NCBI GenBank assembly: GCA_963716985.1
Contig: OY970323.1
Span: 544,001-608,000 of the forward strand
Origin: an uncultured bacterium
Lineage (GTDB): Bacteria > Chlamydiota > Chlamydiia > Chlamydiales > SM23-39
Length of the DNA: 64,000 bases
Direction of reading: 5' to 3'
The position numbers were made by a program, and so were the translations under genes. The notes under the pieces are model-generated. The model did no database searches, had not been told where the DNA came from, and was given only the letters and a program-made list of their open reading frames with translations. Below, piece by piece: positions 54,011-62,508 of the stretch. Every line of letters begins with the position of its first letter. The stretch's first letter is position 1.

Positions 54011-54263
54011 CTCGACTTTGTGCATTTTTTGATCTGATAGCCCAAGGTCATTTGCTTCAATCTGTAAAATAAAAAGTTGATAGAGAGTGCCGCTTTGCGC
54101 ATACTATTTGGTTTACTACAACAAAATGGTAGGCTCTCATGGACTCTCTATCGTCAAACACTTTAGCAGTACTCACCCTTTTTTCAGTACTTTTTTCAAA
54201 ACCTTCTTGGAAAGCTCTAACACTTCTCCTTGGCAATCTTGTTTGTACTGACAAAATAACCGT
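54011..54263 (+). mobile_element. Left-end fragment of the IS701-like element with intact terminal repeat
   Basis: CTCGACTTTGTGCATTTTTTGATCTGATAGCCC..., colinear with 59721-59973 including the first transposase codons. Confidence 0.88.
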
Positions 54264-57641: not shown

Positions 57642-58224
57642 GAAATGCGCTTTACTTCTTTTGCCTTTGATCGCTTGAAAATTTTTTTCAAAGATTGCTC
57701 ATCGACGCGCTAACGAAGCTATCGAGCATGCTTCTAGCGTGAGTTTATTTTAAAACTTTCAAAAATTGAACCTAACGATCTTGTGATGAATTGGATGGAG
57801 CAAAAACTAATGGTATACACCAACACTTTCTATTTTGAGCGGCTTCAGGTGCACTTTTGACAAGTTTAAAGTCTTAAAAAGCTCTTGTTGTCGATTGATG
57901 CATTTTGTTTCCAATCTCAACCTCCAAAGGATGTAAGAGACTTGTTTTCAAAATTCCCCTGTTTGAATTTTTTCACCAGCAGCTTTTCCTATCGGTATTT
58001 ATGTTTACGGAAAAATTGCGGAAATTTTTTTTTTGAAAGGCTAGCTTTTTGGCAATATTATTGAATCCGTTTCGAATTCAGTGGCCATAGAATCTTTTTG
58101 ATCAGGGCCTTTATCTCGACATGAGATAATTGCGCGCAAAGAGGGTTGCTCCTTTAAAACGGAGTAGCTATAGCTCTCCAATGTAACCGCGACCCATTTA
58201 AGGGTCAAAAACAAGGAGCAACCC

Positions 58225-59262
58225 ATGAAGTATTTTGTAGGTTTAGACGTTTCTATGAAAAACACATCTATCTGCATTGTAGACACAGAGGGAAAAATTG
58301 TCTACGAAACAACCGCGAGTACCGACCCGCATATTTTGGCAGATACAATTGAGAAAACGGGTTTCAAAAGTGAACTCGTAGGTTTCGAAAGCGGCTCTCT
58401 CAGTCATTACTTATTGCAAGGATTTCGAGAACGAGCTTTGAGTGCAGTTTGCATGGATGCAAGAAAAATGAGTGCCATTCTTTCTGTTCGTGTAAACAAG
58501 ACTGATAAGAATGATGCAAGGGGAATCGCCGATGCGCTCAGAACAGGAACGTTTTCTCGAGTACATGAAAAGCCACAGGAAGCTATCGATAGAGGCGCTA
58601 TTCTTTCTATGAGGCGATGTTTGGTGAGCCAACGTACTGATATCAAAAATCATATCCGAGGAATTTTGAAAACATACGGTATCCGTCTTGGTTCTGTTGG
58701 TCCTGCAAAATTCACAGAAACAGTAAAGCAACGCATTCAGCAGATAGATCCTTTGGTACAAAAGATAATGACAGGGTCGCTTGAAATTTTCGATCTACTC
58801 ACAAAACAGCTTTCTCGAATAGACCAAGAACTCTTGCAATTGGCCCGTGCAGATAACGAAGTGAAGCTCCTGATGACAGCTCATGGCGTAGGGCCAATTA
58901 TAGCACTGACTTATAAAGCTGAAATTCATGACGCCCATCGATTTTCCAATTCTCGTGCTGTCGGCGCATATCTTGGGATGACTCCGACACAATATTCTTC
59001 TGGAGAAACAAGTAAGCAAGGAAGAATCTCGAGATGCGGTTCCAGCGAGCTTCGATCACTGCTAACCGAAGCTGGGCTTGTGGTTCTTACGAGAAGCAAA
59101 AAATGGAGCAAGCTCAAGGCATGGGGGCTTAAAATCATGAGAAAAAAAGGTATTAAAAAAGCATCCTTGGCTGTTGGGCGAAAATTAGCAGTTATCATGC
59201 ATCGAATGTTGATAGAGAAAAAAGAATTTATATGGGGAGAACCGCCCAGTAAAGCAGCGTAA
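58225..59262 (+). CDS. IS110-family DEDD recombinase/transposase
   Basis: GLDVS, GFESG, KTDKNDA (DEDD); C-terminal YSSG serine motif; AGGAG RBS. Confidence 0.96.
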   Translation: MKYFVGLDVSMKNTSICIVDTEGKIVYETTASTDPHILADTIEKTGFKSELVGFESGSLSHYLLQGFRERALSAVCMDARKMSAILSVRVNKTDKNDARGIADALRTGTFSRVHEKPQEAIDRGAILSMRRCLVSQRTDIKNHIRGILKTYGIRLGSVGPAKFTETVKQRIQQIDPLVQKIMTGSLEIFDLLTKQLSRIDQELLQLARADNEVKLLMTAHGVGPIIALTYKAEIHDAHRFSNSRAVGAYLGMTPTQYSSGETSKQGRISRCGSSELRSLLTEAGLVVLTRSKKWSKLKAWGLKIMRKKGIKKASLAVGRKLAVIMHRMLIEKKEFIWGEPPSKAA

Positions 59263-59703
59263 ACTGTTCTTCACTTGAGCAATATTGGTGGATCGCATTG
59301 GAGCGGTCGAGATAGAGAGTAAAAATCATGAGTCAATATACAGGAACACCGAAGAAGTGGGCAAATACGTTGCAAAGTTGGCACATAGATGCCGTTCTCG
59401 ACATTGTATTGTCCATTTCATTCGGATTTCATGGTGGGGCGAGGAGAGAAAATGTACTCCTCAAAAAAAGACCCCGGAGAGAACGGTGGATTCTTCCTGT
59501 TGTTTGGACAAAAATGAAAACTTTTTATCCCGGCGTCTGTGCTCGTTTTTTATCCGGTCCCCAAGGCTTCGCTCACAAGTGAGGAACCGGAAAAAAAACT
59601 CCGCTAGCCGCCTTGAAGGGAAAGAACATTAAATAAGACCTTGAAAGTGTGTGATTTAAGCCTGCTTTTGAGCAAAGGATTATAAAATGACATAAGAGCA
59701 CTC
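59263..59703 (+). ncRNA. Putative bridge/seekRNA region (exact ends unknown)
   Basis: Stem-loop 59354-59419 whose internal loop carries GTTGCAAAGT and TCTCGAC, matching the two halves of the target site. Confidence 0.75.
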
Positions 59704-59844
59704 TTGCGCGCAATTAGAGAACTTTGTACATTTTTCGATCTGATAGCCCAAAGTCATTTGCTTCAATCTGTAAAATAAAAAGTTGATAGAGAGCGCCTCT
59801 TCGCGCATACTATTTGGTTCACTAAAACAAAATGGTAGGCTCTC

Positions 59845-61404
59845 ATGGACTCTCTATCGTCAAACATTTTAGCAGTACTCATCCCTTTTTCAGTACTTTT
59901 TTCAAATCCTTCTTGGAAAAAAGCTCTGACCTTATTACTTGGCACGCTTTTATGCACTGGCAAGAGAACCGTGTGCGCGGCTCTGCGCGCAATGGGTCTT
60001 GAGCATCAGGCGGGTTTTTCAAAGTACCATCACCTTTTAAACCGGGCGGAATGGTCGTCACTCAAGGCAGCGAAAATCCTATTCTTTATGTTGCTTATCT
60101 TTGTCTCCGATCAGCATCCTTTGGTTCTGCTCATTGACGAGACATTGGAGCGCAGGCGTGGCAAGAAGATAAAAGCAAAGGGCTATTATCGAGATGCGGT
60201 TCGATCGTCACAGTCTCGAGTGGTCAAAGCCATGGGTTTGAAGTGGCAGGTTATGGCGCTCTCTGTGAAATTGCCGTTTATGTCGAGAGCACTTGCATTG
60301 CCTTTTTTGAGTGCACTGGAGCCTTCTAAAAAATGTGATGAAGCGAAGAAACGTCGGCACAAAACCTCATTAAAATGGGCGAGTCAGATGGTCTTACAGG
60401 TGCGTCGATGGGTAGGTAAGGCGCGATCACTAATTCTTGTTGGCGATGGAGGATATGCTGCGGGACAGTTGGCTCTGAACTGTATCTGTTCTGGGGTGAC
60501 TCTTGTTTCGCGACTGAAAATGAATGCAGCCCTGTTCGATTTCCCGGCCAAAAAACGTCCCGGTCAAAGGGGACGTACAGCACAGAAGGGCGTCAAATTG
60601 CAAAATTTTAAACAGATGCTATCTCTGAAGGGATTGCCCTGGAAAGAAATGGAAGTAGTCGGTTACGGCGGAGAGAAACGGGTAGCTCGCGTGCTGTCTA
60701 ACACATGTATGTGGGGAGCCGATGGAGTGACTCCTATTCCCATCCGATGGACTTTGGTGGTGGATCCTACAGGAAAACTTGATCCTCTACCTCTTATGAG
60801 CACAGATCCACTCATGACGGCAGAACGTATGATAGAATTATTTATCGATCGCTGGGGACTTGAGGTCACATTCGAGGAAACACGTGAACATCTTGGCGTA
60901 GAGACCCAGCGGCAATGGTCGGATCGAGCAATAGCCCGATCGACTCCCATACTGATGGGGCTATATAGTTGTGTATGCCTAATGGCAAATCGATTGGGAC
61001 AGGTAAAGTTGCTGAAAGTAGAGGCAACTGCTTGGCACCAAAAAGAACAAGTCACATTTTCCGATATGTTGAGGGCTGTGCGCATGGTAATATGGAGGGA
61101 TAATTTAATTTCCGGGAAGACTAAAATCACCCCTTCCGTGGAAAATATTACTCCGGAAATGGTGGATTGGATGGATGATCCTAAAAACGGCAGTTGAACC
61201 GCTCCGCATGACCTGAAAATTGTAAATTTCTCTCTCAGAAATAAATTCTATCTTGAACTTTCACGCCCACCCAATAGGTGAGTGGATAAATTTGAGCAAT
61301 AACATTGATTTTTAGAGGAGAATCGCGAAAGTTTTGATTGTGCGGAGCGGTTCAACTGCCGTTTTTAGGATGATATAGTAAGGCGAGTGCTTCAGGCGGC
61401 CTGA
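59845..61404 (+). pseudogene. IS701-like DDE transposase with C-terminus truncated by a MITE (ORF 59845-61197)
   Basis: LIDETLERRRG, LVGDGGY, RWGLEVTFEETR. Removing the MITE restores ...DWMDDIVRRVLQAA* ending at 61404. Confidence 0.85.
61180..61369. mobile_element. 190-bp MITE
   Basis: Perfect 29-bp TIR CCTAAAAACGGCAGTTGAACCGCTCCGCA; 5-bp TSD ATGAT; no coding capacity. Confidence 0.9.
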
Positions 61405-61536
61405 GCTAAGCCGCTAAAAGTTGCAAAGTCGAGTTTATAATTTAATTTAAAAATGGAGGTATTTTATGCTTCAAATTCCTGGATATAGAGATCCTCTACT
61501 AGTGCTCTGTCATAGTTAAAATTTAGGATTATAAGT

Positions 61537-62508
61537 TTGGCAACGGTCGGCATAAACTCAAGTCAATTTATCCTAAAATTAAAGGGTGACAGAGCACTAG
61601 CCTATCAATCGCAATCTGTGGAAACGTTTCCTGAGAGAATTCATAGATATGCTATGATAACTAGGGCTATAGCAGGAGGAGCAGGAGCAGTAGCAGGAAT
61701 AGAAGCAGGAGTAGTAGTAGCAGTAGCAGGAATAGAAGCAGGAGTAGTAGTAGCAGTAGCAGGAATAGGAGCAGGAGTAGTAGTAGCAGTAGCAGGAGGA
61801 GTAATAGGAGCAGAAGTAGGAGTAGTAGCAGGAGCAGTAGCGGGAGGAGTAATAGGAGCAGTAGCAGGAATAGGAGCAGGAGTAGAAGTAGTAGGAGTAG
61901 TAGTAACAGGAGTAGTAGGAGCAGGAGTAGTAGCAGCAGTAGCAGGAGGAGTAATAGGAGCAGAAGTAGGAGTAGGAGTAGTAGTAGGAGTAGGAGTAGG
62001 AGCAGCAGCAGCAGTAGCAGGAGTAGGAGTAGCAAGAGCAGTAGCAGGAGGAGCAGTAGGAGCAGTAAGAGCGCCGAATGAAAAAAGAAAACAACAAGCT
62101 TTTTGCCGGGCTATTCTTTCGAACCATTTTCAAGCTTTATCCAATGCACAAAAAGCAGAAGATAAAGAAAACTTTTCTGTTATGATGGCAGAGGCCTTGG
62201 AGCGTATATCTCAAATCACGGTGCAGCAGCTTATTCTCTGTGAAACAGAGCCTACAGAAAGAAACATGCCACCGGCTCTTTATTCTATTATTTCCGAAGG
62301 GAATCGCTTAAGAGATATTCGCGAACATTTTCGAGGGCTTTCTGAAGGTCAAAAAAGGCAGTTGGATTTGCTTTCCGAAGAAGAGCCTCGAGATTCAGTC
62401 CTTTCAAGTCTAAGAAGAGATGGAAGATCTTTGGCAGGAAGTATTTTGGTAAGCAGAAGAATGAATCTTCTTTTTCAAGAATTTGCAGAAGCTGCGGCAG
62501 CGCTTTGA
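61537..62508 (+). CDS. Gly/Ala/Val-repeat membrane protein, paralog of 34159-35220; 5' end possibly frameshifted
   Basis: ~134-codon hydrophobic low-complexity tract; GGAGG plus ATG at 61466 lies in another frame. Confidence 0.6.
   Translation: MATVGINSSQFILKLKGDRALAYQSQSVETFPERIHRYAMITRAIAGGAGAVAGIEAGVVVAVAGIEAGVVVAVAGIGAGVVVAVAGGVIGAEVGVVAGAVAGGVIGAVAGIGAGVEVVGVVVTGVVGAGVVAAVAGGVIGAEVGVGVVVGVGVGAAAAVAGVGVARAVAGGAVGAVRAPNEKRKQQAFCRAILSNHFQALSNAQKAEDKENFSVMMAEALERISQITVQQLILCETEPTERNMPPALYSIISEGNRLRDIREHFRGLSEGQKRQLDLLSEEEPRDSVLSSLRRDGRSLAGSILVSRRMNLLFQEFAEAAAAL
61669..62070 (+). repeat. GNA-triplet low-complexity repeat (GCA/GGA/GTA/ATA/GAA)
   Basis: Almost every codon ends in A; higher-order 33-bp unit AGIEAGVVVAV occurs three times. 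Confidence 0.9.

Follow-up and report, generated by a model that had tools for sequence, protein, structure and literature searches.

Why does one insertion sequence (IS) lie exactly inside the terminal repeat of another, and was it led there by an RNA of its own? The question is raised by a locus in a stretch of 64,000 nucleotides (hereafter the window) from an uncultured bacterium of the Chlamydiota (GTDB lineage Chlamydiia; Chlamydiales; SM23-39), which comprises positions 544,001 to 608,000 of the forward strand of contig OY970323.1 in assembly GCA_963716985.1. A reading made earlier from the sequence alone had proposed that an IS1111-type RNA-guided recombinase element is inserted precisely into the end of an IS701-like element. 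With a probability of about 0.87, we consider 58121-59722 to be an intact IS1111-type element that was steered by its own two-loop RNA into the terminal repeat of an IS701-like element, a judgement reached by comparing sequences. The parts of this nested arrangement are as follows.

58110 to 58114: TTTAT, which precedes the host IS701-like element as the left copy of its 5-bp target-site duplication; the right copy is at 61434 to 61438.
58115 to 58120, plus strand: CTCGAC, the outermost 6 nt of the host left terminal inverted repeat, severed from the rest; the last 2 bases are the AC core, and the 15 intact left ends start CTCGACTTTGT...
58121 to 59722, plus strand: complete IS1111-type (IS110-family) insertion sequence of 1602 bp, the sole full copy in the genome.
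59723 to 61433, plus strand: remainder of the host IS701-family element (DDE_5, NF049999), with its transposase gene at 59845-61197 and the right terminal repeat ...CAAAGTCGAG.

At the left junction, TTTAT (58110-58114) and CTCGAC (58115-58120) are followed by the insert from 58121 onwards; at the right junction the insert ends with ...TTAGAGA-AC at 59722 and TTTGTACATTTTTCGATCTGATAGCCC begins at 59723. AC is thus found at 58119-58120 and again at 59721-59722, and as its neighbouring bases are not the same at the two junctions, the core common to both has a length of exactly 2 nt, in agreement with the sequence-only reading. Counting one right-end copy of AC, the insert measures 1602 bp and is followed by TTTGTACATTTTTCG... 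Excision of 58121-59722 in silico yielded CTCGAC directly joined to TTTGTAC..., as at 15 other, intact left ends of the IS701-like element, so that the rejoining claimed earlier holds to the base. The crossover lies 6 nt from the tip of the host left terminal repeat, no sequence is duplicated besides the AC core, and the outer 6 nt of this repeat are now 1.6 kb away from the rest of it.

The identity of the host element is equally clear. It consists of 58115-61433 minus the insert, with its right end ...CAAAGTCGAG reaching 61433 and TTTAT following at 61434-61438, which confirms the matching duplication reported at 58110 and 61434. The host transposase scored 296.8 bits against the NCBIfam profile NF049999 (IS701 family; cutoff 170) and matched Pfam DDE_5, and the assignment of the split repeat to an IS701-family element is hence upheld. 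A DDE transposase, ends CTCGACTTTG... in inverted orientation and 5-bp duplications all agree with IS701 membership; 5-bp duplications also flank other host copies, for example ATTAC at positions 209936 and 211457. Twelve full-length copies, 97-100% identical, and additional fragments are present in the genome, where CTCGACTTTG occurs 44 times: at 15 intact left ends, at 15 right ends, at 9 internal sites of a third IS (1.39 kb) and at 5 other places. Since CTCGACTTTG recurs as the ends of the 12-copy element, the rejoined sequence is a normal end of that element and not a chance match. The unsplit left end noted at 54011 is real (54015-54213 align with 59721-59919 at 94% identity), but it belongs to a solo fragment and not to a full copy:

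54011 to 54263, plus strand: solo left-end fragment of the IS701-like element, about 250 bp, with an unsplit terminal repeat (88% over query 1-250).

We then asked what kind of element the insert is. Its ends and its gene are arranged as follows.

58121 to 58139, plus strand: left end, consisting of the extension ATGAGA (58121-58126) and the left subterminal inverted repeat TAATTGCGCGCAA (58127-58139); a 13-nt inverted match links the two ends, a layout shared with relatives.
58225 to 59262, plus strand: transposase/recombinase of 345 amino acids with an N-terminal DEDD (RuvC-like) domain and a C-terminal Transposase_20 domain containing GMTPTQYSSG (open reading frame, Pfam, NCBIfam).
59704 to 59722, plus strand: right end, in which the subterminal inverted repeat TTGCGCGCAATTA (59704-59716) is followed by GAGA as extension (59717-59720) and by AC as core (59721-59722).

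The transposase matched PF01548 (residues 5-151, 3e-18) and PF02371 (residues 214-296, 5e-23) and scored 252.3 bits against NF033542, 'IS110 family RNA-guided transposase' (cutoff 140), along positions 1-341 of the 343 in this profile. Its C-terminal region matches the ISCro4 and IS621 structures, the SG of GMTPTQYSSG being aligned with the SG of ISCro4. As is typical of the IS110 family, the two ends do not form inverted repeats at their outermost bases and no target duplication extends past the AC core. According to Siddiquee et al. (PMC11187229) and Durrant et al. (PMC11208160), the traits that divide the IS1111 from the IS110 group are subterminal repeats, a long 3' non-coding part, transposase size and a sequence motif. 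All four are seen here: the subterminal repeats (58127-58139 with 59704-59716) are perfect over 13 nt, the non-coding part amounts to 460 nt downstream of the gene (59263-59722) and 104 nt upstream of it (58121-58224), and both the 345 residues and GMTPTQYSSG conform to the size and the GL-P----S/TG motif of the IS1111 group. The designation as an IS1111-type element was therefore sustained by the DEDD and Transposase_20 domains, NF033542, the subterminal repeats and the long 3' region. In the IS1111 group the subterminal repeats usually comprise 11-13 bp and the extensions 7 and 3 (or 6 and 3) nt (PMC11187229). The present element departs from this: its left extension has 6 nt and its right one 4 nt followed by the 2-nt core (6+6 or 8+4, according to the side to which AC is assigned), which makes 12 in all instead of 9-10. 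Relatives have the same layout of 6 and 4 plus core, and the extension lengths are a deviation from the IS1111 group in detail, not in kind.

The long 3' region contains a sequence that is predicted to fold into a bridge/seekRNA.

59340 to 59500, plus strand: predicted bridge/seekRNA, with an outer stem (59340-59346 with 59494-59500) around a target-binding and a donor-binding stem-loop (fold z = -2.4; covariance model).
59370 to 59378, plus strand: target guide T (RTG), UUGCAAAGU, the complement of AC+TTTGCAA in the top strand, right of the insertion point.
59380 to 59393, plus strand: conserved small hairpin GGCACAUAGAUGCC between the two target guides.
59396 to 59402, plus strand: target guide B (LTG), UCUCGAC, the same as the top strand of left flank and core and hence complementary to the bottom strand.
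59427 to 59435, plus strand: donor guide T' (RDG), UUUCAU+GGU, of which the first six bases (59427-59432) pair with the left extension ATGAGA, including one G:U pair.
59478 to 59484, plus strand: donor guide B' (LDG), AGAGAAC, the same as the right-end extension and core.

The predicted target loop is a long stem with an internal loop in which guides T and B flank the small hairpin and overlap at AC, the guide for the top strand coming first. As expected for the donor loop of a bridge/seekRNA, the second loop matches both donor ends. Compensatory changes were found in 15 of the 37 RNA pairs in an alignment of five sequences. A scan of 57900-61600 against Rfam at E <= 1 returned a chance miRNA-like match only and no curated bridge-RNA family, and the sequencing runs listed for this sequence include none of RNA.

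Read together, the two target guides specify the site (T)CTCG-AC-TTTGCAA, which is the tip of the terminal inverted repeat of the IS701-like element. This 14-mer occurs eight times in the 2.07-Mb genome, in every case as a right end of the IS701-like element. A further 17 sites differ from it by one mismatch: 7 are additional right ends, 9 lie inside the third IS and 1 is elsewhere. One of the right ends belongs to the very host copy that carries the insert:

61420 to 61438, minus strand: unoccupied right terminal repeat of the same host copy (contig position 605434); the minus strand reads ACTCGACTTTGCAAC, with one mismatch to the 14-mer.

The occupied site matches 12 of the 14 guide-specified positions, and the two mismatches are distal to the core. 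As judged from these matches, the predicted RNA is written for the terminal repeat of the IS701-like family. The third IS (about 1.39 kb, 9 copies, one of them at about 630139 of the same contig, outside the window) carries the internal site TCTCGACTTTGCGA, which has one mismatch to the guide target; none of the nine sites is occupied.

To assess the agreement between guide and flank beyond a single insertion, related elements from other genomes (denoted here by G numbers) were included. Guide T and right flank were compared in 23 distinct pairs, in which 111 of 161 non-core positions match, versus a mean of 1.95 of 7 (28%) for non-cognate combinations. Not one of 100,000 shuffles reached 111, the maximum being 81. 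The figure of 111/161 is conservative as two rows (L068 and L135) are mis-registered and agree by eye at 7/7 and 5/7 positions, and the related genomes are non-independent, so that the outcome of the shuffles is a strong indication and not a probability. The position of guide B in the target loop likewise varies with the left flank, which is TAT-AC in G059, GGG-AC in G048 and TTTCA-AC in a metagenome-assembled genome (MAG) of the Simkaniaceae. The donor loop follows its own ends in the same manner: in G048 both donor guide B' and the right end are changed to AAGGAAC, and guide T' tracks the left extension in four element types (G000, which is the present genome, G059, G038 and G048), with 1 mismatch in two of them; examples are CAUUAU with ATAGTG in G059 and AAGUAU with ATACTG in G048. 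The term 'RNA-guided' is thereby given direct sequence support, consisting of a target loop complementary to both strands of CTCG-AC-TTTG(CAA) and of the guide/flank covariation in relatives.

Flanks of other copies provide a further line of evidence. Apart from its one full copy, the IS110-type element is represented in this genome by four fragments. Two of them keep the left boundary, and both are directly preceded by CTCGAC while the DNA further out differs; one of the two is internally deleted, the deletion beginning at a microhomology of 4 nt (ACAT) with the left junction. In G034, a relative that is 88% identical, left ends abut (A)TCTCG-AC in three contexts, two of which are the arms of one palindromic structure. 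The comparison of flanks that the sequence-only reading had proposed as a check thus turned out favourably for the left side, with CTCGAC in front of two remnants here and three left-end contexts in G034, but the genome offers no second right junction. The IS701-like element was looked for in G033, G034, G038, G048 and G059, all of them fragmented assemblies, and was not found. One of the G034 loci (L039, contig C102, about 1041-1175) is a palindromic derivative in which the left end is fused to its own tip in inverted form, with CTCGAC on one side and GTCGAG on the other; it resembles an inverted duplication in which the flank is included.

Given these features, the insertion would have come about as follows. 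A DEDD recombinase would be directed by the bridge/seekRNA from the 3' non-coding region of the element itself (59340-59500). Within the target loop, guide T would bind the top strand on the right-hand side of the crossover and guide B the bottom strand on its left-hand side, with AC covered by both; the donor loop would find the tips of the element itself, the right one by means of AGAGAAC and the left one by means of UUUCAU. By analogy with the IS110/IS1111 literature, from which the circular intermediate, the junction promoter and the RNA processing are all inferred, the IS would excise as a circle with abutted ends, a promoter would be created at the junction and the RNA would be processed. 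The complex of recombinase and RNA would then exchange strands at AC between donor junction and target, leaving AC on both sides of the insert. When the ends are abutted, TTGCGC and GATAAT face each other across the junction with a spacing of 17 nt and 8 of 12 consensus matches.

Several observations weigh against a guided insertion. The occupied left repeat reads TTTGTAC and agrees with the guide-specified TTTGCAA at 5 of 7 positions (6 of 7 with a G:U pair), and none of the eight perfect 14-mer sites is occupied. With one full copy and one right junction in the genome, specificity within this genome is derived from left junctions and the guide only. The two bases of guide T' that should face the core do not complement it here, nor do they in most relatives (GG, AA or GA). 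Misfits between guide and flank exist in G038 (contig C17, 2/7), in G232 (3/7) and in G060, where 15 nt are inserted into the guide region. As a promoter the junction is no more than moderate, and a consensus scan of the integrated element showed nothing notable. Tolerance of mismatches has been described for IS621 (PMC11208160), and the donor guide of IS621 for the top strand likewise pairs discontiguously (Durrant et al., PMC11208160).

The alternative that fares best against a guided insertion is an unguided one, in which the element landed by chance or by a loose preference for an AC motif, its location in an IS repeat being coincidental and the insertion surviving as harmless. The single full copy with its single right junction, the two mismatches at the occupied site and the occurrence of some relatives at guide-mismatched sites such as that in G038 would all agree with it, as would the half-matched insertion described for IS621 (bioRxiv 10.64898/2026.08.31.748434). 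Against it, the guides spell 12 of the 14 positions of the occupied site and the exact 14-mer is confined to the ends of this one IS family. Moreover, TCTCG-AC is the common left flank of two remnants here and of the left ends in G034, and the covariation between guide and flank lies far above that of shuffled pairs. We therefore consider unguided landing very improbable.

Steering by the element's own RNA presupposes that CTCGAC is part of the host. The sequence could instead belong to the IS110-type element, whose true left end would then be 58115, with UCUCGAC as a donor guide. This would explain why (T)CTCGAC precedes every left end of this element type here and in G034, and why the palindromic derivative in G034 has CTCGAC/GTCGAG on both sides. 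However, the left repeat of the host is incomplete without exactly these 6 nt, as the 15 intact left ends show, and TTTAT lies outside them. The corresponding loop position changes with the left flanks in relatives (G059, G048 and the Simkaniaceae MAG), the subterminal repeat and the 6-nt extension can be aligned across relatives only with AC as the boundary, and a separate loop already matches the donor ends. There is thus little room for this assignment, and we regard it as highly unlikely.

To address the possibility that the nested arrangement is an assembly artefact from joined repeats, contigs of four metagenome runs were compared with 57900-60100, with a criterion of 31 nt for crossing a junction; one of the runs, X1, may be the source sample of the genome. 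X1 record 6 covers 59338-59750 with 0 differences and extends 28 nt past the right junction, less than the 31-nt criterion. The artefact check proposed earlier is hence answered in part: the right junction is crossed, by 28 nt only, and the left junction in its own context is uncovered, the lack of an independent bridging contig there being a further point against our interpretation. Both partners are repeats, and one X1 contig joins the outer flank of a 61-nt remnant locus to the left end and continues to 58324. On the other side, the genome is a single 2.07-Mb contig, the join rebuilds the repeat base for base, TTTAT is preserved on both sides, and the site is predicted by the guide of the element itself; for the last three reasons we regard a mis-join as highly unlikely. 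Other states of the 61-nt remnant locus were seen in the same runs. In the X1 contig just named (record 1) no less than 204 nt of the element follow its outer flank, and in X3 record 17 a different sequence lies directly to the left of CTCGAC; these states may reflect a longer copy in that population or strain polymorphism, or a repeat-assembly effect.

In the next step, we considered what the relatives target. In G059, the right flank at all four junctions seen starts with TCGTTCCGTT, which together with TATAC forms the terminal-repeat tip of a miniature inverted-repeat transposable element (MITE) at 42 sites; conservation among the copies begins exactly at TATAC. In G048, the target is GGGAC followed by TGTTGAAATC, the tip of a MITE repeat at 151 sites, with conservation beginning at the first G. 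In G034, the right flank is formed by an arm of a palindromic element (about 90 bp) whose second arm ends with the predicted full target, and in G232 an inverted copy of the flank is present 145 nt away. In all four genomes the crossover lies 5-6 nt from the tip, and the left-hand guide matches only those tip bases and the core. By sequence, therefore, the predicted targets in at least four other genomes are inverted-repeat ends of MITE-like elements. When a terminal-repeat target was defined strictly, by an inverted copy of 14 nt (core AC and 12 nt of right flank) within about 1.4 kb at no more than 2 mismatches, only 3 of 26 loci qualified. The Simkaniaceae MAG has as its target a short hairpin, which the guides match at 7/7 and 8/8 positions and which has just three exact sites. 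Terminal-repeat targeting is not universal among the relatives.

It is conceivable, though we hold this to be rather doubtful, that the IS1111-type lineage of this order repeatedly rewrote its guides in order to home on the terminal-repeat tips of locally abundant DDE-type ISs or MITEs (CTCGAC, TATAC and GGGAC up to the crossover), always with the crossover 5-6 nt from the tip. It would act as a hyperparasite that finds safe, multiplying landing pads and disables the occupied end. If true, this lineage would be a case of natural guide reprogramming driven by conflict between mobile elements. For the host copy studied here, it is plausible, as an inference only, that the split left end is no longer usable by the IS701-type transposase and that the copy stays immobile until the IS excises. 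Only 1 of 31 ends of the IS701-like element is occupied, however, and precise excision, of which IS110-family elements are capable, would reverse it. Should the splitting of repeats indeed block transposition, elements of this kind would be brakes on other ISs.

IS4321 and IS5075 are IS1111-type elements that insert at a fixed position and in a fixed orientation in the terminal inverted repeats that Tn21-type transposons carry. Theirs is the closest described behaviour: like the present element, they have subterminal inverted repeats and enter the terminal repeat of a different transposable element at one set position and in one set orientation. The difference lies in the host, here an IS701-family IS in a chlamydia-like bacterium and there a Tn3-family transposon in proteobacteria, and in the crossover, which is here 6 nt from the tip.

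The downstream non-coding region, the position of the top-strand guide 5' of the bottom-strand guide and their overlap at the crossover are shared with ISEc11, ISKpn4, ISPst6 and ISPa11 (PMC11187229), and so are subterminal repeats of 11-13 bp, a transposase of 330-350 amino acids and the GL-P----S/TG motif. The extensions are 6 and 4 plus AC here and 7/3 (or 6/3) there, and the second loop clearly matches both donor ends here, whereas the passages in question (PMC11187229) describe target matches only. With the IS621 bridge RNA (PMC11208160) the element shares two programmable loops, one guide per strand, coverage of the 2-nt core and a DEDD recombinase with a C-terminal SG. In contrast to IS621 (PMC11208160), the RNA is 3'-encoded and not 5'-encoded, the order of the guides in each loop is reversed, the core is AC and not CT, and long subterminal repeats are present; the two proteins are distant (phmmer E = 6e-7, C-terminal region only). 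Repeated targets that contain inverted repeats and offer many harmless sites are also used by ISPa11, ISPpu9 and the IS1111-attC group (REP, i.e. repetitive extragenic palindromic, or attC targets; PMC11187229, PMC12288879). The repeated target differs from theirs in being, here and in at least four related genomes, the functional end of a transposable element or MITE. Neither a chlamydial IS1111-type element nor an IS701 end serving as target of an IS110-family element turned up in a search of an open-access library; the supplementary tables of PMC11208160 and PMC11187229 may list comparable targets.

To learn how widespread the guide RNA is, genomes were searched with DNA and with a covariance model. 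It was found in 9 of 103 genomes of the family and in 19 of 151 genomes of a sample of the phylum, distributed over six families; the covariance model found it in none of the 27 genomes of another family, f4. Among named records, the closest proteins come from a Simkaniaceae MAG (74% identity) and a Rhabdochlamydiaceae MAG, in agreement with the description of the element as a chlamydial IS. An unclassified 'Proteobacteria' MAG contig of 1.3 kb also matched and was set aside as its ends are inverted copies of each other. A tblastn search of plasmids with the transposase gave a best match of 43% identity carrying generic 'IS110 family' labels only; enterobacterial plasmid matches were at about 28% and were not identified as IS5075.

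Hence the element is a new member of the IS1111 group and not a new mechanism, and the known mechanism is unchanged by these results. What goes beyond the known is the host phylum, the use of an IS701-family end as a target and the evidence, from related elements in sister genomes, of guides rewritten for the repeat tips of unrelated MITEs. Bridge/seekRNA elements are thereby extended to chlamydia-like bacteria, and the locus is a natural example of an RNA-guided recombinase whose target can be read from its own guide, the 14-mer being present only at the ends of one IS family in the genome. The covariance model together with more than 20 naturally reprogrammed guide/target pairs around a fixed AC core could inform the rules for designing guides of IS1111-type elements. 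The locus also illustrates how mobile elements nest in each other's ends in a small, IS-rich genome of the intracellular type.

Several derivatives of the element were encountered in the course of the searches. Two loci in G059 (L056/L075 on contig C16 and L045 on contig C18) are transposase-less or internally deleted; they keep both ends and the guide RNA, are found at targets like those of full elements and could represent non-autonomous mini-elements that carry a guide. The guide-RNA model also gave weak hits, limited to the donor-loop half, in the present genome (L077, contig C1, 673755-673867, minus strand) and in G033 (L070, contig C7); these are probably decayed remnants of a related element. 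G157, from a sister family, holds at least 20 near-identical guide-RNA copies with flanks TAT-AC-TCGTTT..., which suggests an active burst there.

Two further features lie within the insert itself.

58143 to 58224, plus strand: conserved long-range stem in which GGGTTGCTCC (58143-58152) pairs with GGAGCAACCC (58215-58224) over the AAGGAG ribosome-binding site (58213-58218) just upstream of the ATG (alignment).
59527 to 59612: palindromic module of about 85 nt between the bridge RNA and the right end, with 82-84% matches in G007, G056 and G022.

The counterpart of the stem in G059 is GGCTTACTCC / GGAGTAAGCC and differs by two compensatory changes; to judge from this pairing, the stem may limit translation of the transposase. 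The spacer between guide RNA and right end is 215 nt here and 43-89 nt in relatives, which are without the palindromic module, and its length is partly due to this module. The matches in G007, G056 and G022 are situated at contig ends, and within this genome the module is confined to copies of this IS. Two small open reading frames in the 3' region (59285-59632 and 59328-59582) are without a Pfam match and overlap the RNA, and were treated as spurious.

The host copy of the IS701-like element has been struck twice, by the IS1111-type insert in its left end and by a MITE in its transposase gene.

61180 to 61369: MITE of 190 bp with terminal repeats of about 29 nt and an ATGAT duplication, located in the last codons of the host transposase gene and missing from the 11 other full copies.

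This MITE replaces the final 9 residues of the host transposase, and many solo copies of it are found throughout the genome.

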